From a bacterium (lineage in GTDB: Bacteria > UBA10199 > 2-02-FULL-44-16 > DYJF01): a stretch of 10,596 nucleotides of DNA. Within the stretch, counting starts at the first letter, position 1. Each line of letters starts with the position of its first letter. A program made the translations under genes and the position numbers. This document shows, piece by piece, positions 1 to 10,596 of the stretch. The notes under the pieces are model-generated. The model was not told the DNA's origin and made no database searches. It saw only the letters and a program-made list of their open reading frames with translations. Where the stretch lies: NCBI GenBank assembly GCA_041739675.1, contig JBGSNL010000071.1, positions 1 through 10,596 on the forward strand, written 5' to 3'.

Positions 1-1083
1 CATCATGTGGCGCATGATGGGGTAGTCGTCCACGATGCCTGCCGCTCCCAGCATTTCTCTTGCGATGCGCGTGCACTCGCGCGCGACCCAGACGTTGTTT
101 CTCTTGGCCATCGAGACCTGCTGGTGCTTCATATTCTCGGCGTCTTTGAGGCGGCCCAGCTGCAAAGCGAGGAGCTGGCCCTTCGTGATTTCCGTCAACA
201 TCCAGACGAGTTTTTCCTGCTGGATCTGGTAGCGCGCGATGGGGCTTCCAAACTGCAATCTTTCGCCCGCGTATTTGAGGGCCGTTTCGTAGCAGTTCAT
301 CGCGGCGCCCAAAGCGCCCCATGAGATTCCGTAGCGGGCCTGATTTAAGCACCCCAAAGGACAGGCAAGACCCTTTGTGCCGGGAAGATAATGGGTGTCG
401 TTGTCAATTTCGACATCGTCGAAGATAAGCTCGGAGGTGACGGACGCCCTTAGCGACCACTTGCCCTTCGTTTCAGGCGCGGAAAAGCCCTTCATACCTT
501 TTTCGACCAAAAAACCGCGGATGACATTTTCGTCGTCCTTCGCCCAGACTACCGCACAGTCTGCGATGGTTCCGTTCGTGATCCACATCTTTCTGCCGTT
601 GATGACCCACTTATTTCCCTTTTTGTGCGCGCGCGTGAGCATCGAGCCCGGATCGGAGCCGTGGTCGGGTTCGGTTAAGCCAAAGCAGCCGATTTTTTCG
701 CCCTTTGCCATCTTAGGGAGCCAGAATTTTTTCTGCTGCTCCGAGCCCCAGCGCCAGATGGGATACATGACAAGGCTTCCCTGCACGGAACACATGGAGC
801 GCACACCCGAATCGCCGCGCTCCAACTCTTGAAGGGCCAGGCCGTATGCGACGTTGTTCAAACCCGCGCAGCCGTATTCCTGCGGGAGATTAGCGCCGAA
901 ATAGCCCAGCTCCGCGATTTTAGAGATCAGATGTTTTGGAAATTCCGCCTTGCGGTGCGCCTCGGTGATGACCGGCATCACTTCGTTATCTACAAAATCG
1001 CGCGTCGCATTTTGGATCATCAACTCTTCTTCGGATAAAAGCCCGCTCATCGCGTAATAATCGGTGCAGTTCATCTTGCCCAT
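1..1083 (-). CDS. gcdH: Glutaryl-CoA dehydrogenase (acyl-CoA dehydrogenase family), 3'-truncated by the window edge, 361 codons visible
   Basis: Not in the ORF track because there is no stop in the window. Manual translation from ATG 1083: MGKMNCTDYYAMSGLLSEEELMIQNATRDFVDNEVMP...QELERGDSGVRSMCSVQGSLVMYPI...IGCFGLTEPDHGSDPGSM...NGRKMWITNG...KWSLRASVTSEL...LNQARYGISWG...AKRNN...AREMLGAAGIVDDYPIMRHMM. These are GCDH-type signatures. SD AAGGAGG lies just upstream of the ATG. Confidence 0.9.
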   Translation of the reverse strand, partial: MGKMNCTDYYAMSGLLSEEELMIQNATRDFVDNEVMPVITEAHRKAEFPKHLISKIAELGYFGANLPQEYGCAGLNNVAYGLALQELERGDSGVRSMCSVQGSLVMYPIWRWGSEQQKKFWLPKMAKGEKIGCFGLTEPDHGSDPGSMLTRAHKKGNKWVINGRKMWITNGTIADCAVVWAKDDENVIRGFLVEKGMKGFSAPETKGKWSLRASVTSELIFDDVEIDNDTHYLPGTKGLACPLGCLNQARYGISWGALGAAMNCYETALKYAGERLQFGSPIARYQIQQEKLVWMLTEITKGQLLALQLGRLKDAENMKHQQVSMAKRNNVWVARECTRIAREMLGAAGIVDDYPIMRHMM

Positions 1084-1118: not shown

Positions 1119-2438
1119 CTATTTCAATTGAGACACAATTTTTGCTCCGGCATCGAACGCCCTGACGTTTTCGTCGCGGATCTTCTCCTTTGGGATCGCA
1201 TCAAGTACCGCCTTGAACGCGGCGGGATCGATCGCTTTTGAAAGATGAAGCAGGAGTGAAATCGCGGCGGTCATGATATTTGCCTTTGAAAGTCCCAAGG
1301 TTCTGTCCTGAGTGTCGATATCATAAACTCTGGCTTCTGTTTCGAGGTGAACGTCTTTTGTTTTGATGACGATGTCTTTTTCGGTCAGAAGTTCCAGCGT
1401 CTTTTTGACCACTTGCAGCCCGTCACTCGATACGATGAGCATGGCGCTTGGCTCGTCTATTCCGGCGTAATGGATCTCATGGGGAGAGAGCTTGATCTCG
1501 GAGACCGAATGGCCGGTCTGGACCGTCACGGGGTAGTCGTCCTGCTGTGTGGCGTAAAGACCGCAGTTTAGCCCCGCGCGCGCCAGGTTCGTTGCCGCGG
1601 AGACGATCTTCATGCCCGCGCTTCCCGCCAGCACTACCGAATAATATCCCTCTTTGATATTGGAGCTGAATTTCGCTTCCAACCCCTTTGGGGGTTTTGA
1701 AGGTTGTTTCTCAGGCGGCCACGCCATCCTCAAACCTTTTGAATATTCCGTGAGTTTTTCGTCCTTTAAGACGCCAAGCTTCAGACCATTATCCGCCACC
1801 ATCTTTTCCAGATTAGATTTCTTGAACTCATTTAACGGCATGAAGTAAGCGGTGCATATTTCAAGGATGTCGATAAAGGCAAAGCCGTCGTGACGAAACG
1901 CCTCGGCCAATGTGTCAGACAAGTCCTTGTCGAAGGCGGTCTTTCTCGCAACGAACGTGGCGTTTGAGGCGAGAGTGAGGTTGCAAAGATCGAACGGCCG
2001 CTCGATATTTCCTTCCGGCGTTGTGTGGGTTTTTCCCTGCGTGGGTGTCGTTACCGAGTGCTCGCCGCCGGTCATTCCAAAGTTGAAGTTGTTAAAGCAG
2101 ATGACCTTGATGCCGATGTTTCTGCGGGCGGCGTTTATAAGATGATTTCCGCCGATGCCGCAGCCGCCGTCTCCCACAAGCACGAAAACCTGAAGTTCCG
2201 GATTGGCGAGTTTCACGCCGCACGCGTAGGTGAACGAGCGGCCGTGAAGACCGTGAAAGGTATGCACGTCAAAATATTTGTCGGCCAAACCCACGCATCC
2301 TATGTCCGAGACAAGAACCGTGCGCTTTGGATCTGCGCCTGTTTTTTCAAGGGCATCGCCTATTGCGTCCAGAATCGTGCCGTGAGTGCAGCCGGGGCAG
2401 AACGGATAAGGTTTTCTATCTGGATTGACGTATTTCAT
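1119..2438 (-). CDS. 2-oxoacid:ferredoxin oxidoreductase, fused beta (TPP/[4Fe-4S]) and gamma domains, 439 aa
   Basis: N-terminal FCPGC (C14, C17), SDIGC (C48), HGLHGR, GDG...NN TPP motif, FGMTGG and C195 mark a beta subunit. After a Pro-rich linker (WPPEKQPSKPPK), residues ~265-439 (VVLAGSAGMKIVSAA...ATQQDDYPVTVQTGHSVSEIKLS...ENVRAFDAG) resemble the gamma subunit. The start overlaps the alpha stop (TAATG at 2436-2440). Confidence 0.9.
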   Translation of the reverse strand: MKYVNPDRKPYPFCPGCTHGTILDAIGDALEKTGADPKRTVLVSDIGCVGLADKYFDVHTFHGLHGRSFTYACGVKLANPELQVFVLVGDGGCGIGGNHLINAARRNIGIKVICFNNFNFGMTGGEHSVTTPTQGKTHTTPEGNIERPFDLCNLTLASNATFVARKTAFDKDLSDTLAEAFRHDGFAFIDILEICTAYFMPLNEFKKSNLEKMVADNGLKLGVLKDEKLTEYSKGLRMAWPPEKQPSKPPKGLEAKFSSNIKEGYYSVVLAGSAGMKIVSAATNLARAGLNCGLYATQQDDYPVTVQTGHSVSEIKLSPHEIHYAGIDEPSAMLIVSSDGLQVVKKTLELLTEKDIVIKTKDVHLETEARVYDIDTQDRTLGLSKANIMTAAISLLLHLSKAIDPAAFKAVLDAIPKEKIRDENVRAFDAGAKIVSQLK

Positions 2439-3547
2439 TATATTTTTTCGATAATCGTTTCGGGTGAAATGAGCTTCCCGTCAACGCGGTTAACCGCTTC
2501 CACCATCTTGTCCGGGAAGATCCTTTCAATTTCCAAGACGTATTGTCCGAGATTCAACTCCGGCACTATTATTTTTTTATGATTACCTACGAGACGCACT
2601 AGAGATTTTTCAGGAATCGGCCATATCGATTTCACGATGATGAGCGAGACCTTGCCGCCGCCTTTTCTCACCTCGTTCACGACATCGCGGGATGCGCGCC
2701 CCATCGAACCGTATGCTATAATGACGGCGTCTGCCCCGTTATCGAGATCGGTGTCGATGCGTTCGATCTCATCCGCATGACTCATGATCTTTTCGTTCAG
2801 ATGGAGAAGGGCGGGGCCGGCGACGTCGGGGTCTTTTGACAACATCCCCGCCTTGTTGTGAGTTGATGTGTTGATGCGCGTCAGAATGTCACCGCCGATC
2901 GGCGCGAAGGGCGGGACGTCTGAGAGCTCCTTGTAATTATAGGGAAGAAAGTTCGCCGCGTCGGTTGCCATTTTTCTCGAAACGGGCGCAGGTTTTTTAT
3001 ATTTTGCGATGTTTGCAGTGGAGCGGTTCATCACGAGATCCTTGCATGTCGATAAGACAACCGGAGTTCTGAACCTTTCGGCCAAATTGAAGGCCTCGAT
3101 TGTGAGCTCGTAGGCCTCTTCCACCGTGGTTGGAGAAAGGACGATCATGGGATATCCGCCGGATGTGACCCATCTTGCAAACTGGATGTCCCCCTCGGCG
3201 TTGGTCGTGGCCCCTCCGGTGGCGGGCCCCATGCGCTGAACGTTGATAATGACCATCGGGAGCTCGGCCATCTGCGCAAAACCTATATTTTCGGAGTATA
3301 GAGAGATACCTGGCCCGGAAGTGGCGGTCATGGGTTTCATTCCCGCCGACGATGCGCCGATACAAAAGCCTATCGATGCGATCTCGTCTTCGCCCTGCAC
3401 AATAACGCCTTGCGCCTTGGGCATCGAGCGGACAAGCGAGAGTAATATTCCGGTCGCCGGCGTGATTGGATAGCCCGCAAAAAAGTTGCAACCGGCATCG
3501 ATCGCCGCCCTTGCAATTACCTCTGCCCCTGTGACAAATTCTAGCAT
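2438..3547 (-). CDS. 2-oxoacid:ferredoxin oxidoreductase alpha subunit (KorA/VorA-like), 369 aa
   Basis: FFAGYPITP, QGEDEIASIG, TATSGPGISL, ELPMVIINVQRMGPATG, EAFNLAERFRTPV, and a C-terminal transketolase-C-like domain (IIAYGS...WPIP...ELNLGQ). Confidence 0.93.
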   Translation of the reverse strand: MLEFVTGAEVIARAAIDAGCNFFAGYPITPATGILLSLVRSMPKAQGVIVQGEDEIASIGFCIGASSAGMKPMTATSGPGISLYSENIGFAQMAELPMVIINVQRMGPATGGATTNAEGDIQFARWVTSGGYPMIVLSPTTVEEAYELTIEAFNLAERFRTPVVLSTCKDLVMNRSTANIAKYKKPAPVSRKMATDAANFLPYNYKELSDVPPFAPIGGDILTRINTSTHNKAGMLSKDPDVAGPALLHLNEKIMSHADEIERIDTDLDNGADAVIIAYGSMGRASRDVVNEVRKGGGKVSLIIVKSIWPIPEKSLVRLVGNHKKIIVPELNLGQYVLEIERIFPDKMVEAVNRVDGKLISPETIIEKI

Positions 3548-4955: not shown

Positions 4956-7547
4956 TTATTTTGATTTAAGAAAGTACTCTTCAGCAGGCGCTCTCATGTT
5001 GTAGTTCGAGCTCATCACGCGCCCGTATGCGCCTGCATTTCCGATGAGAAGGATGTCTCCTTCGCAAGGGGAGGCGAGAAGGCGCTCGTGGCCCAGGATG
5101 TCCCCCGACTCGCAGATAGGGCCGACGACGGAGGCAAGGTGCGCCGCTTGATCGCCCATGCGCGAAAGATTCACGATCTCATGGTACGAGCCGTAGAGCG
5201 CGGGCCTGATGAGAGTGTTCATGCCCGCATCCACGCCGACATAGTTGTACTCTCTCTTCTGCTTTAGTTGTGTGACTCGCGCAAGAATTATCCCCGCCTC
5301 CGCTATCAGGAATCTGCCCGGCTCGATCCATAGCTCATAGTTCGGATGGGCGTTTTTCACTTTTTTCAGATTTTCTTCAAGCGCGGCCATATCGAGGCCG
5401 GCATGGCTCGTCGTTTCGGGAACACCGAAACCGCCGCCGGCGTCAATGATCTTCACGTCGGGGAAACGTTTTGCGACGGACACAAGAAAGAGGGCGGTCT
5501 GGCTCCAGGTGTCGGGGGTTAAAATATTGGAGCCGACGTGTGCGTGGAGACCCTTGACCTTCGCGCCGCATTTTTTCAAGATGGATTCGATCTCGGGGAG
5601 CTGAGTCTCGATTATGCCGAATTTCGATTTTGAACCCGCGGTGCGCACATATTTGTGATGTCCGTCGCCTTTTTCAGGATCGATCCTTAAAAAGATTTCC
5701 TTGTTTTTGAAGATCTCTGGCCAGTTGACTATGGGGTATGTGTTATCTAGCGTAACCTGAACTCCCAGCTCAAACCCCTTCACATATTCGCTTTTTGGCG
5801 CGAAGTTGGGCGTGAATAGAATCCTTCCCCTCTCGATTTTGGGGAAAAGTTTGAGGACGTGGTTCACTTCACCCAGAGATACGCACTCAAAATTCAGGCC
5901 GGCCTTAAAAACCGCTTTCAGGATGTCGGGGTTCGAATTGGCCTTTACGGCGTAGAAAATCCGGTCCACCGATTTCAAAGATTTCAGCTTCACGATCGAA
6001 TTTTCAATTGTCTCTTCGTCGTAGACATAAAGCGGTGTTTTGTCTTTTGCGATTTTTAAAAGCTCGTTTCTCTTCTTGTTCCACCAGGGCAGGCTGGCCT
6101 TTTTTTCCGCCGGTTTTATGTTGAGCTCGTGCCATGTAGGCCCCAAAAGGGCGTCGTTTTTCCTCCCTTTGAAAAGTTGGCCGTGCAGCTGGCTCACAAG
6201 TCTTTGAGCCTCCTCCTCTTCCACGACGAAGGTCAGGTTCAAATCGTTTGCAGCCTGGGAGATGAGATATATCTTCTGCTCTTCGAATACTTCAAGGGCC
6301 GGCGTGAGCAGGTGAAGTATCGATCTTATGTTCTTTCCCAGAAGGCTCACGAGCGCGCACGAATCGATGACACGGACACGGCAGAATTCCGAAAGGTCCG
6401 AAGTTAGCGCGCTTAAACGCTCTTCATCGAGGAGATTCGCGCTGTGATCGAGCGTTACCGTGATATTTGTCTCAGAGGTGGAGACAAGATCGATCGAAAG
6501 GCCGTGCTTTTTGAAACATGAAAAGACGTCGGCCAAAAAACCAACCTGCTGCCACATGTCAACGGTGTCCATAGAGACGAGCGTGATGCCCTGCTTCGAG
6601 GAGATCGCCTTTACCTGCGCCCCTTTGTCGCCCGATTCGCTTCTGATCACGGTGCCTCTAACATCGGGATGGGCGGTGCTGTATATGTGGAGAGGAATCT
6701 TGTGTCTTTTGACGGGCGCAATGGTGCGCGGATGCAAAACCTTTGCGCCGGCCGAAGCTATCTCCTGAGCTTCGTCGTAATCCAAAACCTTCAGGAGTCG
6801 CGCCGACGGAATCTTTTGCGGATTTGCGGTGTACATGCCGGGGACGTCGGTCCAGATCTCAAGTCTTTCAGCGGAAAGTTTTGCCGCAAAATACGCGGCT
6901 GATGCGTCAGAGCCGCCCCTTCCCAGAAGGACGGTTTCGCCGCCTTTATTTCGTGCGATGAATCCCTGCGTGACGATTACCGGCGCCTTCATGCTATCGA
7001 AGCGTTTGAGAAGTTCGTCGTCTTTTTCGATATCGCAGACGGCCGATAGATAGGATTGTTTTTCGGCGAGATGGGCGATCTCCATTGAAGTCAGGTGCTC
7101 GCGCGCATCGCACCATGTTGTCGGAATGCCGCGCGCCGAGAGATAGGCCGCACCAAGTTTTGTAGACAAAAGTTCGCCGTACGAGAGCGCTTTTGCGCGG
7201 ACGCGCGGGGAGATTTCGCGGACCAACGACGCTCCGATAGCCAACTGTTTTAACTCCTCTATCAGCGGGGCCGCCTCATCAAAAGAGACGCTCAACTCTT
7301 TCGCGTGGTCTCTATGGCGTTTGGCGATCTCCTCTACGATCCTTTCGGGTTTTCCGGTCATGGTTTGGTGAAGCAGCCCTTCCAGCTCGTCGGAGACGCC
7401 AGAAAGCGCAGAGCAGACGATCAGCACGCGAAATCCCTCGTTTCGCCTTTTCTCGACGATTTGGGCTATCGTCTCCCAGCGATCCCGCGAGGAAACGCTT
7501 GTGCCGCCGAATTTTAAGACGACCCATTTTGAACCGGCAACTGGCAT
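4956..7547 (-). CDS. lysAC: Bifunctional aspartate kinase / diaminopimelate decarboxylase, 863 aa
   Basis: N-terminal aspartate kinase (VLKFGGTSV, TQGFIA, LGRGGSDAS, WTDVPGMYTANP, GAKVLHP) with ACT-like region (VGFLADVF...IDLVSTSE). C-terminal PLP fold-III decarboxylase (FYAVKAN, SKFG, HAHVGS, AGGGFG, EPGRF, RPALY, GPICESGD, GAYGRVMSSNYN). SD GAAGGGGG upstream. Confidence 0.97.
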   Translation of the reverse strand: MPVAGSKWVVLKFGGTSVSSRDRWETIAQIVEKRRNEGFRVLIVCSALSGVSDELEGLLHQTMTGKPERIVEEIAKRHRDHAKELSVSFDEAAPLIEELKQLAIGASLVREISPRVRAKALSYGELLSTKLGAAYLSARGIPTTWCDAREHLTSMEIAHLAEKQSYLSAVCDIEKDDELLKRFDSMKAPVIVTQGFIARNKGGETVLLGRGGSDASAAYFAAKLSAERLEIWTDVPGMYTANPQKIPSARLLKVLDYDEAQEIASAGAKVLHPRTIAPVKRHKIPLHIYSTAHPDVRGTVIRSESGDKGAQVKAISSKQGITLVSMDTVDMWQQVGFLADVFSCFKKHGLSIDLVSTSETNITVTLDHSANLLDEERLSALTSDLSEFCRVRVIDSCALVSLLGKNIRSILHLLTPALEVFEEQKIYLISQAANDLNLTFVVEEEEAQRLVSQLHGQLFKGRKNDALLGPTWHELNIKPAEKKASLPWWNKKRNELLKIAKDKTPLYVYDEETIENSIVKLKSLKSVDRIFYAVKANSNPDILKAVFKAGLNFECVSLGEVNHVLKLFPKIERGRILFTPNFAPKSEYVKGFELGVQVTLDNTYPIVNWPEIFKNKEIFLRIDPEKGDGHHKYVRTAGSKSKFGIIETQLPEIESILKKCGAKVKGLHAHVGSNILTPDTWSQTALFLVSVAKRFPDVKIIDAGGGFGVPETTSHAGLDMAALEENLKKVKNAHPNYELWIEPGRFLIAEAGIILARVTQLKQKREYNYVGVDAGMNTLIRPALYGSYHEIVNLSRMGDQAAHLASVVGPICESGDILGHERLLASPCEGDILLIGNAGAYGRVMSSNYNMRAPAEEYFLKSK

Positions 7548-7747
7548 AATGCCCCCTTCAAAATCCTAAAAAACAAATAATTTCAAGAACTAAAAGATAT
7601 CTGAAGTGCGGCTGCCATCTCGAATATGGCGGCAGCAAAGGTGCGTTATGAGAAAAAAGAGCGCGGCGGCAATAACCCCTAGTGGATATTCCTCAATGAT
7701 TTCAGCCATTAATGAACGATAATATTTTCTCCCCAACATTCGGAAAG

Positions 7748-7756
7748 TGGTATAAT
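7748..7756 (+). promoter_or_regulatory. Extended -10 promoter element (TGnTATAAT)
   Basis: TGGTATAAT is a perfect extended -10 consensus, ending 30 nt before ATG 7787 and upstream of SD GGGAGG. Confidence 0.6.
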
Positions 7757-7786
7757 CAAGCCAAAAGAAAAATGTGGGAGGCGGTT

Positions 7787-8080
7787 ATGAATAAAATTAT
7801 TCCCACGATCGGCGCTTCGTTGATGCTTGCTGCCAATGTTGTGTCGGCGGAGGTGCAATTTAACCTCATATCTCACGAGACGAAAGAACCCGGCGACAAT
7901 ACCTCAATCGATCTCAATTTGCCGGAAGACACGGAAGCTGTGGAAAGCGGGCAGGGCGCGGAGCCAGAGATGTATATGGAACCTCAGGGTCAAAGCGGAA
8001 GCCGCATCATCATATACGACAACGATTTCGTGGCGCCGAAATATGAGAGAAATTTCAGCCCGGTACCGAGAGTGAATTAG
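7787..8080 (+). CDS. Hypothetical secreted acidic protein, 97 aa (start revised from 7712 to 7787)
   Basis: SD GGGAGG precedes ATG 7787. MNKIIPTIGASLMLAANVVSA|EV looks like a Sec signal peptide. The mature part is E/D/P/G-rich with no Cys. Flanked by a promoter-like element and a terminator-like hairpin. Confidence 0.7.
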   Translation: MNKIIPTIGASLMLAANVVSAEVQFNLISHETKEPGDNTSIDLNLPEDTEAVESGQGAEPEMYMEPQGQSGSRIIIYDNDFVAPKYERNFSPVPRVN

Positions 8081-8107: not shown

Positions 8108-8146
8108 CAATGCCCGGCGATGGACATGCCGGGCATTGTCTTATTC
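8108..8146 (+). terminator. Probable intrinsic terminator
   Basis: Perfect 11-bp inverted repeat CAATGCCCGGC (8108-8118) / GCCGGGCATTG (8128-8138) with a 9-nt loop, followed by an imperfect T-rich tail TCTTATTC, 27 nt after the stop at 8080. Confidence 0.65.
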
Positions 8147-8188: not shown

Positions 8189-8557
8189 ATGAGAATTCCC
8201 GTCTTCTGTTCGCTGATACCTACGGAGCTTCTGTCCTCGCTCGGGCACGAGCTCCATTTTGTGAGCGCGGATGAGATTTCCGGCGCCGCCGCTTCCGGCT
8301 GCAATTGCCGGTTCCACGAAAACCTGTGCTCCTACGTGAAAGCGCTTCACGGCTATCTTGAGGCGTCGCATAAAAATTACGATCTCATCATTGTGCCGAC
8401 TTCGTGCGATGCCATGAGAAAACTTTTTAATGCGTTGAGCCAAACCGTCCCTTCCGGAAAAATTCATGTTTTAAGTGTGCCGCAGAACAAAGGAGAGGCG
8501 GCTGCCGGATTTTTCGCCGCCGAACTCAAAAAATTGAAATCGAGACTGGAGAGATGA
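8189..8557 (+). CDS. N-terminal half of a 2-hydroxyacyl-CoA dehydratase / BcrC / double-cubane-family Fe-S subunit, 122 aa
   Basis: VFCSLIPTELL, HENLCSYVK, PTSCDAMRKL and VLSVPQ...FFAAELKKLKSRLE match the N-terminal domain of HGD-D family subunits. It ends where the helical middle region would normally start. Confidence 0.82.
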   Translation: MRIPVFCSLIPTELLSSLGHELHFVSADEISGAAASGCNCRFHENLCSYVKALHGYLEASHKNYDLIIVPTSCDAMRKLFNALSQTVPSGKIHVLSVPQNKGEAAAGFFAAELKKLKSRLER

Positions 8558-8558
8558 A

Positions 8559-9779
8559 GTGAAAATAGGAATCCTCGGAGCGAATGTGCCGCTCAAGGCG
8601 TTGGAAGCCTGTTTGAAAAAATTCGGCTTCGAGGCCCTATATCTCAACCACTGTCTCGTGAAATCCCGTCCAGACGCGAAGTTGATGGAGTTAACTGGCG
8701 ACCTTCAAAAGTATGCCGCAGGATTTTTGAAAAAGAACAGCTGCCCGCGCACTAACGATCTTGATTACAAGGGGGAGCTCAAAAAAACAATCGAGAAGGA
8801 GGGCGTTGCGGGGCTCATAGTGAACGCAGTGAAGTTCTGCGATTTCCATCATTTTGATTACAAATATTTCAAAGAGAATCTCGCCATCCCCGTGCTCATA
8901 ATCGAGCATGAGCTGGATGTGAACTCGGAGGGGCAGGTTATGACAAGACTCGACGCGTTTTTTGAAAGTATAAAGAGAAAAATCAAGGTTAAGGCTAAGG
9001 CCAAAGCCGGAGAATATTTTGTGGGCATCGATAGCGGTTCCCACGCGACCAAGCTTGTCTGTATTGATGCGGACAAAAATATTGTCGCGCGCAAAATGGT
9101 TCCGACCGGCACATCGGTAAAGAAAAGCGTCGAGAGGTCTTTAAAGGAGCTGGCCGAAGACGGAATTGTGAAGGGCCAGATAGCGCGGATCGTCGCGACC
9201 GGTTACGGAAGAAACAACGTCGAAGGGGCCTCCCGGATCGTGACTGAAATATCCTGCCACGCGGCCGGGGCCTTTCACATACTTGGAAAACCCGCCACGG
9301 TCATCGATATCGGCGGACAAGACAGCAAGGCGATAAGAATGTCGGATGGAGGCAAGGTCGCCCAGTTTGCCATGAACGATAAGTGCGCCGCCGGGACCGG
9401 AAGGTTTTTGGAGGTGATGGCCTCAAAGATGGAAATGGATCTTACAGAATTTGCAAAACTTGCGCTCAAGGCCAAAAAAAGCGTCGCGGTCTCCAGCATG
9501 TGCTCCGTCTTTGCAGAGTCAGAGGTGATATCGCTCATCGCAACGGGTTCAGCCAAAGACGAAATTGCAAAGGGGATCCACATGGCGATCGCGGAGCGCA
9601 CAGCCTCTCTTGCGAGGAGGATAGGCGGAGAGCCCCCGTACTACATGGCAGGAGGGGTCGCAAAAAACATATGCCTCGTGAGGGAGCTCAAAAATTGTCT
9701 GGGCTCCGAAATTGAGGTCATAGACGAGCCTCAGTTCACAGGTGCTCTGGGCGCGGCGCTGTTCGCGCTTGAAGGATAA
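8559..9779 (+). CDS. Fusion of the C-terminal half of a HAD-family Fe-S subunit (aa 1-138) and a CoA-substrate-specific enzyme activase (HgdC/BcrA-D-type ASKHA ATPase), 406 aa
   Basis: GTG start with GGAG at 8548-8551. HAD C-terminal motifs: KIGILGA, NHC, SCPR, GLIVNAVKFCD, IPVLIIE...GQVMTRLDAFFE. Activase motifs: GIDSGS, ATGYGR, TEISCHAAGA, VIDIGGQDSK, MNDKCAAGTGRFLE, SSMCSVFAESEVIS, GGVAKN, PQFTGALGAAL. Confidence 0.92.
   Translation: MKIGILGANVPLKALEACLKKFGFEALYLNHCLVKSRPDAKLMELTGDLQKYAAGFLKKNSCPRTNDLDYKGELKKTIEKEGVAGLIVNAVKFCDFHHFDYKYFKENLAIPVLIIEHELDVNSEGQVMTRLDAFFESIKRKIKVKAKAKAGEYFVGIDSGSHATKLVCIDADKNIVARKMVPTGTSVKKSVERSLKELAEDGIVKGQIARIVATGYGRNNVEGASRIVTEISCHAAGAFHILGKPATVIDIGGQDSKAIRMSDGGKVAQFAMNDKCAAGTGRFLEVMASKMEMDLTEFAKLALKAKKSVAVSSMCSVFAESEVISLIATGSAKDEIAKGIHMAIAERTASLARRIGGEPPYYMAGGVAKNICLVRELKNCLGSEIEVIDEPQFTGALGAALFALEG
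8985..9008 (+). repeat. Degenerate hexamer tandem repeat encoding the KVKAKAKA interdomain linker
   Basis: AAGGTT AAGGCT AAGGCC AAAGCC, located between the HAD half-domain and the activase domain. Confidence 0.5.
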
Positions 9780-9780
9780 T

Positions 9781-10596
9781 ATGGCGGGAAAAGACGTCAC
9801 AGCGAAAAAATTGTACAACGCGGTGTCGAAGGGAAAATTTTCCTTCCATGACGCGATTCGCCTCTACAGGTTGCTTGACGTCTATTTTTCGAGGACGAAG
9901 TCGCCCGCCGGCAGGGTTTCGGCAAGGGAGATATCGGGCTATCTTGCAAAAGCTACCTCTGCCGACGTGAAAAGCGCCTGGACGTCGGTGCTCTTTCCGG
10001 CCGAGGTACTTCACACCTTCGGCATCCATCCGATAACCCTTGAGGCGATTGCAGGAACCTTTTCTTCGCTGGGCCTCTCCCCCATATTCCTGAACACCGC
10101 GGAAGGAATGGGTGCTCCGCCGACGATGTGCTCCTTTCACCGCATGCTCATGGGAATTTCAAAAAGCGGCATTCTCGGAACGCCCGATGTCGTGGGGGCC
10201 GCGTCCATTTTATGCGACGGAAACGTGAAGACGTTTTCGGAAGCGGCAACGGAGCAGCGTGTCCCTTTCATTTTCATAGATGTTCCCTTTGAAGAAAGCG
10301 GCGACGCGGTCGCCTATGTGAAAGATCAGCTGGGGCGCGCATTGAAAACCCTTTCGGAGCTCACGGGCGTAAAACATTACAGTGAAAATCTGCGTCAGGT
10401 GCTTGAAAATTCAAACAGGGCGTTCGGGGGTTTCAGGCGCTTTTACGATCTTGAAAGAATCAGCAGAAAAAACATTTTCAGGGCTCACGAGACCGCGAAC
10501 TTCGCCTTTCCAAACCACTTCATGCTGGGCCGCAGGGAACTAGTGTCGATGCTTGAAAAAACAAGCGAGGCACTGACATCGAAAAAGAGGCATAAC
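9781..10596 (+). CDS. Second 2-hydroxyacyl-CoA dehydratase-family subunit (probably the catalytic alpha-type), 3'-truncated by the window edge, 272 codons visible
   Basis: Not in the ORF track. Open frame from ATG 9781, 1 nt after the previous stop, with AAGGA upstream: MAGKDVTAKKLY...SAWTSVLFPAEVLHTFGIHPITLEAIAG...AEGMGAPPTMCSFHRMLMG...ASILCDGNVKTF...VPFIFIDVPFEESGDAVAYVKDQL...ELTG...LRQVLENSNRA. Confidence 0.9.
   Translation, partial: MAGKDVTAKKLYNAVSKGKFSFHDAIRLYRLLDVYFSRTKSPAGRVSAREISGYLAKATSADVKSAWTSVLFPAEVLHTFGIHPITLEAIAGTFSSLGLSPIFLNTAEGMGAPPTMCSFHRMLMGISKSGILGTPDVVGAASILCDGNVKTFSEAATEQRVPFIFIDVPFEESGDAVAYVKDQLGRALKTLSELTGVKHYSENLRQVLENSNRAFGGFRRFYDLERISRKNIFRAHETANFAFPNHFMLGRRELVSMLEKTSEALTSKKRHN

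Follow-up and report, generated by a model that had tools for sequence, protein, structure and literature searches.

A putative double-cubane subunit divided between two genes, one of which carries a fused activator ATPase

Gene content of the locus

The window, by which we mean the whole 10,596-nucleotide stretch of DNA analysed here, is an entire contig (C63) of the bacterial genome G000 (1.9 Mb, 94.6% complete). Three forward-strand genes, ORFs A, B and C, make up the cassette. ORF A (8189..8557) encodes 122 aa corresponding to the alpha/beta domain at the N-terminus of a six-cysteine subunit; it covers positions 1-111 of the Pfam HGD-D profile (PF06050) and by itself matches residues 74-185 of DCCP (6ENO), with three of its cysteines on the first three ligand columns of that protein. 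On translation, cysteines fall at residues 7, 38, 40, 47 and 73. Cys7 (8207..8209) is equivalent to DCCP Cys75 and BzdN Cys36 and is a predicted distal-cubane ligand. Cys47 (8321..8329, together with Asn45) is equivalent to DCCP Cys113 and Cys73 (8405..8407) to DCCP Cys143 and BzdN Cys100, and both would be proximal-cubane ligands. Asn45 is the counterpart of DCCP Asn111, a reductase contact.

The two genes meet within 8548..8561 on the forward strand, where a Shine-Dalgarno-like GGAG, the TGA of ORF A, one base and the GTG of ORF B are found, giving a +1 frame offset. ORF B (8559-9779, 406 aa, GTG start) has two parts. Residues 1-140 (8559..8978) correspond to the C-terminal alpha/beta domain of the six-cysteine subunit and contain Cys at 18, 32, 62 and 94; Cys32 (8652), Cys62 (8742) and Cys94 (8838) are equivalent to DCCP Cys308/340/373 and BzdN Cys263/293/327, and Gln126 (8934) to DCCP Gln408. 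The gene coordinates of the original prediction, and its spacings of C7-x39-C47-x25-C73 and C32-x29-C62-x31-C94, were reproduced by our translation. Residues 152-406 (9012..9779) encode an activator ATPase of the ASKHA type, fused to this domain, in which the motifs GIDSGSH, TEISCH and DIGGQD occur alongside two putative cluster cysteines, Cys276 (9384) and Cys315 (9501). This region scored 247.6 bits against TIGR00241 (cut-off 125.4) and was the only activator ATPase found in the 94.6% complete genome.

ORF C (9781..10596, forward strand, ATG at 9781) encodes a HadB/BzdO-like catalytic-type subunit and continues past the contig end. Glu88 (10042), Cys117 (10129) and Cys145 (10213) lie within the window. 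The third cysteine is encoded by a candidate C-terminal part on contig C6 of the same genome (G000:C6:2-538), which holds the remainder of an HGD-D protein and whose first 70 bases agree with those closing C63 in 65 of the 70 cases.

The flanks differ among loci, and no conserved pathway genes were found beside the cassette. An acyl-CoA dehydrogenase (window 1-1083) was rejected as a partner, with occurrence in 4/9 cassette genomes vs 18/84 others (Fisher p 0.21). G000 also contains a glutaconate-CoA-transferase-like pair, which occurs in six of the nine cassette genomes and five of the 84 others (8/84 at a looser threshold); because kin are not independent, we kept this co-occurrence only as a lead. 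The best match for oah scored 71.7 bits with TIGR03200, against a cut-off of 464. NF040772 has a selenium link (bioRxiv 2022.07.06.499078, available portion), and for selD no match in G000 rose above the cut-off (82.3 vs 125 bits). A search for COX1 gave no match, and no RNA holder was listed.

The break between ORFs A and B

Among 25 related loci, five (L018, L019, L020, L028 and L029) were split at the same place as the window, 17 were fused and three were too short, so that the fused form accounts for 17 of the 22 scoreable loci; the set includes near-duplicates (L010/L022, L012/L024, L018/L020 and L031-L033). Relatives at 62-72% identity retain the break. Fused relatives are 549-580 aa long, against 528 aa for ORFs A and B together, and carry a linker of 19-51 aa that is unconserved, predicted to be disordered in L021, and cleanly deleted in the split forms. 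Each split ORF B has its own start codon. Three junction layouts were found among the split loci, namely the stop, one base and a GTG (the window, L018 and L020; +1 offset), an ATGA overlap (L019 and L028; -1 offset), and an ATG that precedes the stop by ten bases (L029; -1 offset), and these differing offsets argue against one programmed frameshift.

Public contigs also cross the junction. X1 is identical to the window and is possibly its source, X2 has 36 substitutions and no gaps over the whole stretch, and an X5 contig has 71 substitutions and no gaps. With the same split in relatives, separate starts for ORF B and gapless contigs across the junction, the earlier claim that the halves are two genuine genes was borne out.

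In a 32-row tree of the B region, split rows were nested among fused rows at two places, which implies a minimum of two changes, and a single split clade was rejected by the AU test (p 1.4e-39). P0022, called split by its start alone, was left out of both the change count and the tested clade; the split call for P0002 came from its start and from a contig equal in length to those of P0014 and P0184. The tree has a midpoint root only, and its deeper rows, which include six firmicute-type proteins, are fused, making fission the likely direction. The split is therefore likely to be a derived fission, arising at least twice, of fused forms of 550-590 aa. Across the phylum, 9 of 93 genomes carry the cassette, and G000 was the only one seen to be split at this point. 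The one congeneric genome has the two genes fused here. The copy in G047 has a masked gap inside ORF A, yet the last helix of A reads into B.

Ligand columns, fold and the ORF C partner

A profile of 11 fused relatives placed their six cysteines on the six ligand columns of DCCP, with the fifth within one column (chain numbering in this alignment 76, 114, 144, 309, 341 [within one column] and 374), and aligned exactly with C36, C263, C293 and C327 of BzdN. The [8Fe-9S] ligands of BzdN are C36/73/100/263/293/327 (PMC11971306, available portion). Cys7, Cys47 and Cys73 of ORF A were invariant in 20/20 aligned A-type sequences, and Cys32, Cys62 and Cys94 of ORF B in 15/15 B-type sequences; more distantly, all six columns were Cys in 119 of the best 150 matches. 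The predicted agreement with the six-cysteine order of DCCP thus held, including at A-C7, B-C32 and B-C62, whose alignment and conservation had been singled out for checking. With a full-length six-cysteine match as the bridge, HadC, which holds a single cubane (PMC7317905, available portion), was seen to share four of the six cysteines; its first column is Pro and its fourth Ala, the positions of A-C7 and B-C32. These first and fourth columns, which divide double- from single-cubane subunits, are invariantly Cys in our set (20/20 and 15/15). Both solved six-cysteine members, DCCP and BzdN, hold [8Fe-9S] (PMC7317905 and PMC11971306, available portions), and the rule that six aligned cysteines denote a double cubane rests on these two proteins. 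From this alignment, ORF A and the N-terminal domain of ORF B quite probably hold an [8Fe-9S] double cubane. Mapping the three ligands of BzdO onto the columns indicates that both cubanes would span A and B, with A-C47, A-C73 and B-C94 as the predicted ligands of the proximal cubane and A-C7, B-C32 and B-C62 as those of the distal one.

Other positions were less uniform. The seventh cysteine of DCCP (Cys94, ~19 residues past the first) is absent, residues 24-29 of ORF A being without Cys. The original prediction also pointed to an extra CNC motif in ORF A. Its second cysteine, Cys40 (8306..8308), was invariant in 20 close relatives and lies within the predicted ORF C interface, but no more than 17 of the best 150 distant matches have Cys there, and it is specific to the close clade; Cys38 (8300-8302) was not conserved. 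The DCCP contact residues N111 and Q408 are kept as A-N45 and B-Q126, and both are invariant.

The prediction that the helical middle domain is absent was confirmed by the alignments of relatives, by a structural model and by the HGD-D profile, of which ORF A covers 1-111 and ORF B 244-342, so that the middle third is missing. Counted over both chains, 80 residues separate the third and fourth ligands here, the figure being 97-129 for the 11 fused relatives and 166-170 for DCCP; the split form has lost the linker as well as the middle domain. In BzdN this helical domain has a stabilising role (PMC11971306, available portion). An AlphaFold2 model of the six-cysteine part of the fused relative L021 (pLDDT 88.4, pTM 0.85) could be superposed along its full length on HadC, its top fold match (Z 23.0, rmsd 3.0, 275 aligned), on BzdN, which tied with HadC within 1 Z (Z 22.5, rmsd 2.9, 271 aligned), and on DCCP (Z 21.3, rmsd 3.1, 271 aligned), as compared with Z ~14 for catalytic alpha subunits. 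A profile comparison of A with the N-terminal domain of B gave no support for internal symmetry (probability 0.9%), and we therefore do not propose that the split restores a half-size ancestor.

ORF C follows B in all 16 loci that reach past B, and in L021 it is tandemly duplicated beside a single A-B. Conservation was scored in 76 close homologues out of 83 matches, the seven weakest being left out. The three cysteines were present in 74, 75 and 76 of these 76, the remainder being gaps, and Glu88 was present in 74/76. Glu88 aligns with HadB Glu55, which we take to be the catalytic residue of that enzyme, and with BzdO Glu65. The latter is catalytic (PMC11971306, available portion). ORF C is without the distal-cubane cysteines. 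Its model (pLDDT 89.5) has ~60 extra N-terminal helical residues, and its top Foldseek match was HadB (E 7.5e-18, TM 0.74), tied in TM-score by MbdO (0.74) with BzdO close behind; HadB was also the top single-sequence PDB match. At the position of BzdO His131, ORF C has Asn148, a His that HadB also lacks, and at that of the thioester-binding BzdO Tyr97 it has Phe119 (Phe in 69/76 homologues). With these two replacements, chemistry on a CoA thioester is not assured.

We predicted a complex from the L018 proteins, with A and B 1-140 together with three [4Fe-4S] clusters, and C as the partner and the only chain scored. ORF C scored 0.91, against 0.70 for the best of three controls; the mark applied is reached by 116/157 solved complexes and 2/215 mismatched pairs, counts that serve here as a rough guide only. 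At least 94% of contacts agreed between runs, the partner pLDDT was 91, and the predicted contacts of C fell on A 40-46, A 71-112 and B 63-116. This result may reflect likeness to the solved HadBC and BzdNO complexes. A reading of the two halves as a stand-alone DCCP is not supported, since B has its own ATPase and ORF C is present in 16/16 checkable loci; nor is one as a free-standing module for small-molecule reduction, since ORF C accompanies both halves and is predicted to dock on them.

Proposed mechanism and relation to known systems

On balance we favour a mechanism, drawn by analogy with solved relatives, in which A and B 1-140 would reassemble around an [8Fe-9S] cluster that stores electrons from the ATPase of B and passes them to the cubane of ORF C. 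In this mechanism A and B would fold together like their fused relatives, and each cubane would take ligands from both chains, as in the BzdN/BzdO mapping. Two B chains would pair through the ATPase and hold a bridging [4Fe-4S] (C276 and C315). The DCCP-R ATPase dimer docks on the DCCP C-terminal helix through contacts that include N111 and Q408, and electron transfer in DCCP:DCCP-R needs ATP hydrolysis (PMC9351452, available portion). In ORF B the ATPase is fused right behind the counterpart of that helix, and ATP hydrolysis could charge the double cubane with electrons in the manner of DCCP/DCCP-R. From there electrons would move to a water-ligated [4Fe-4S] in ORF C, as proposed for BzdNO (PMC11971306, available portion), which with Glu88 would perform radical chemistry on a CoA thioester. 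A tethered ATPase with a multi-electron store makes a stoichiometric reduction slightly favoured over a dehydration; given the closeness of ORF C to HadB, dehydration is nearly as likely. Because ORF C lacks His131 and oah falls far under its cut-off, its substrate is probably not benzoyl-CoA.

The nearest alternative retains the same assembly, probably with the same double cubane, and makes ORF C a 2-hydroxyacyl-CoA dehydratase using one recycled electron as in HadBC/HadI; its anatomy overlaps that of the favoured mechanism and only the reaction differs. HadB as the top fold match and top single-sequence PDB match, the lack of BzdO His131 in both C and HadB, and the glutaconate-CoA-transferase-like pair (a close orthologue in 6/9 cassette genomes and 5/84 others) all fit it. 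However, MbdO equals HadB in TM-score, solved HadC has lost the second cubane that is apparently kept here, and the 2-hydroxyacid dehydrogenase (PF02826) matches in G000 are partial and weak (best E 1.3e-8). No family III CoA-transferase was found in this 94.6% complete genome, and the glutaconate-CoA-transferase-like pair also occurs in five genomes without an HGD-D match, with kin that are not independent. We regard a dehydratase as possible, if on the unlikely side. It is less likely again that A and B hold one [4Fe-4S] or [4Fe-5S] through C47, C73 and C94 in the manner of HadC, with the other cysteines structural or bound to another metal. Such a site would suit the tie of HadC for best fold, its four cysteines at the six columns around one cluster, and the absence here of the domain that braces both halves in BzdN. 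It sits poorly with the invariance of C7, C32 and C62 (20/20 A and 15/15 B relatives), with the filling of all six columns in 119 of the best 150 distant matches, and with the [8Fe-9S] held by both solved six-cysteine members.

That the double cubane of A and B is itself the active site, in a DCCP-like small-molecule reductase opened by loss of the middle domain and with ORF C as an accessory, seems improbable to us. DCCP does reduce acetylene at its double cubane (PMC7317905, available portion) and scores with the top sequence matches, and the site could become more accessible once the middle domain is lost; against this, C keeps the catalytic Glu and three-cysteine pattern of HadB and BzdO, lies beside B in 16/16 loci and is duplicated in L021 where A-B is not, and the seventh cysteine of DCCP is absent. 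Least plausible is a split that reflects misassembly, a pseudogene, or programmed frameshifting with one fused chain as its product. The frames do lie one base apart, 17/22 scoreable loci are fused and so is the one congeneric genome at this site, but the break is kept at 62-72% identity, the 19-51 aa linker is deleted rather than frameshifted, the split B genes have their own start codons with differing offsets (+1 vs -1), the junction is spanned gaplessly by contigs that other studies produced, and every invariant residue is kept in both halves.

Returning to the favoured mechanism, we consider it an even prospect that the cassette is a natural case of [8Fe-9S] held between two polypeptides, neither of which would bind a cubane alone, and belongs to an uncharacterised third BCR/HAD branch whose stripped-down subunit, tethered to its ATPase, powers a new radical reaction, dependent on ATP, at a HadB-like site. 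If so, two bare alpha/beta domains would suffice for [8Fe-9S], even on separate chains, and class III proteins would relay electrons to a catalytic partner of their own and not act as stand-alone reductases. Fission of a gene at a flexible linker is nothing unusual. The locus would provide a natural construct in two pieces with which to study how a double-cubane cluster is inserted, and a site that tolerated fission at least twice would be a ready split system for double-cubane assembly.

DCCP and BzdN were the only solved double-cubane proteins met in our structure searches, and no split double-cubane subunit was found in the titles and abstract openings searched, a coverage outside which most of the subscription literature falls. 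The A, B and C pieces all fell far short of the curated cut-offs set for NF040772, BzdN, BzdO, HadB and HadC. HadBC with HadI (2-hydroxyisocaproyl-CoA dehydratase, PDB 3O3M/3O3N) combines a beta-type subunit, a three-cysteine alpha subunit and a single-gene activator, as here, and provides the best fold matches for A-B (Z 23.0) and C (E 7.5e-18), at an identity of only ~20%. HadC lacks two of the six cysteines and holds one cubane, and HadI is separate, whereas the window has all six cysteines and a fused ATPase. DCCP/DCCP-R of Carboxydothermus hydrogenoformans (PDB 6ENO, 7YYL, 7YZM; NF040772) shares the six columns, the fold (Z 21.3), the N111/Q408 contacts and a single-gene ASKHA ATPase. The points of difference are that DCCP forms a 421-aa homodimer, has a seventh cysteine, keeps its reductase in a gene of its own and lacks an alpha-type partner; against the NF040772 cut-off of 350 bits, A scored 47.8, B 20.7 and the fused P0008 56.6 bits.

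BzdN, of the BZD-type class I benzoyl-CoA reductase BzdNOPQ (PDB 8S02), matches in fold (Z 22.5) and ligand columns and places an [8Fe-9S] electron store beside a three-cysteine catalytic subunit, an arrangement predicted alike for A/B and ORF C. BzdN consists of a single 379-aa chain that includes a helical middle domain, and its heterodimeric ATPase BzdPQ is separate, whereas the halves in the window lack the middle domain and a single ATPase is fused to B. BzdO has His131 and Tyr97, and ORF C has neither. All scores for the BZD-type models TIGR03190/03191/03192 were under cut-off. By the defining features of those groups the cassette is not DCCP class I/II, not a BZD-type BCR and not HadBC.

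The closest description is that of the class III DCCPs, which were predicted from sequence (Jeoung, Martins, Dobbek 2020, PMC7317905) and which, in the available portion of that article, have six ligand cysteines, no seventh, enzyme and reductase on one ~550-aa chain, and a firmicute-rich distribution; the likeness is judged here by this published description only. The window has in common with them the six ligand cysteines and the lack of a seventh, and the fused relatives also fit the length. Firmicute-type fusions of 555-600 aa with a 'Y[IV]CKY' motif fit the description as well, and among the best 150 distant matches were 21 six-cysteine ATPase fusions, 12 of them with a gap of 101-116 between the third and fourth cysteines. 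A viral sequence search for the firmicute-type fusions returned one unrelated hgd-type locus, and plasmid searches gave no short fused form, the sole full-length match (Azoarcus KH32C) being a longer fusion. The minimal size noted in the original prediction is thus not new, since class III already describes a short six-cysteine form linked to an ATPase (PMC7317905, available portion). The window differs in that its six-cysteine domain is cut into two genes (122 + 406 aa), in its clade-specific Cys40 and in its non-firmicute host. Its cassette also has ORF C; the available portion of PMC7317905 makes no mention of a partner catalytic subunit. The short fused form with six cysteines and an ATPase is already implied by class III, and what is new here is the split form. 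As the window is split and its fused relatives are single-chain, the best reading of the comparison is that the cassette is a split variant of this described, uncharacterised class, with a BzdN-like subunit beside a HadB-like catalytic subunit.

Cysteines and domain order in the split six-cysteine subunit

Besides its inferred cluster ligands, ORF A carries an additional cysteine, Cys40 (window positions 8306-8308). All 20 of the 20 close relatives share this residue, but the majority of distant six-cysteine proteins lack it. Cys40 lies within the predicted A-C interface (ORF A residues 40-46), near the first cluster cysteine of ORF C.

Where A and B are fused, the linker between them ranges from 19 to 51 aa (loci L010, L025, L026 and L027). 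Several of these linkers have the appearance of in-frame repeat insertions, and that of L027 contains a tandem peptide repeat. Perhaps the A-B linker is a hotspot where fission, too, is promoted. In L011, a locus from a genome of the same genus, a short unrelated stretch with a frame change (L011:6597-6686) interrupts B between the equivalents of Cys32 and Cys62; this is possibly an assembly or scaffolding fault. Other arrangements occurred among the six-cysteine matches: the ATPase precedes the six-cysteine domain in P0041, the domains are rearranged or doubled in the 700-aa protein P0124, and P0156, a short protein (280 aa as recorded), has the six cysteines and no ATPase in its recorded sequence.

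The catalytic-type subunit ORF C

ORF C begins with three basic, amphipathic-looking helices (residues 1-60, window 9781-9960). The length of this stretch is kept across the family, and the sequence matches to HadB/BzdO do not extend over it; the helices could cap a substrate channel or bind a membrane. In L021, two ORF C genes lie in tandem behind a single fused A-B gene (L021:7919-10573), which suggests that one electron-relay subunit serves two catalytic subunits. Because the end of the window (10527-10596) overlaps the start of another contig of the same genome (G000:C6:1-70) by 70 bases with 5 mismatches, all inside ORF C, strain variation is suggested as the cause of the assembly break.

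Neighbouring genes and a CoA-transferase pair on another contig

Three reverse-strand genes lie at the start of the window, encoding an acyl-CoA dehydrogenase (1-1083) and the fused beta-gamma (1119-2438) and alpha (2438-3547) subunits of a 2-oxoacid:ferredoxin oxidoreductase. The dehydrogenase, which we take to be glutaryl-CoA-dehydrogenase-like, scores below every NCBIfam cut-off and shows no co-distribution with the cassette. A bifunctional aspartate kinase/diaminopimelate decarboxylase (4956-7547, reverse strand; NF006515 above cut-off) is syntenic only in L011, L018 and L020. Ahead of the cassette, a small forward-strand ORF (7712-8080) with a signal-peptide-like stretch starting at the Met at window position 7788 had no family match, is retained 5' of A in L011, L018, L019 and L020, and is followed by a 12-bp terminator-like hairpin (8108-8138).

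Elsewhere in the genome, we found a family I CoA-transferase pair (G000:C69:25007-26331) with close orthologues in 11 of the 93 phylum genomes, six of which have the cassette; it shares 32% identity with a GctA-like protein.
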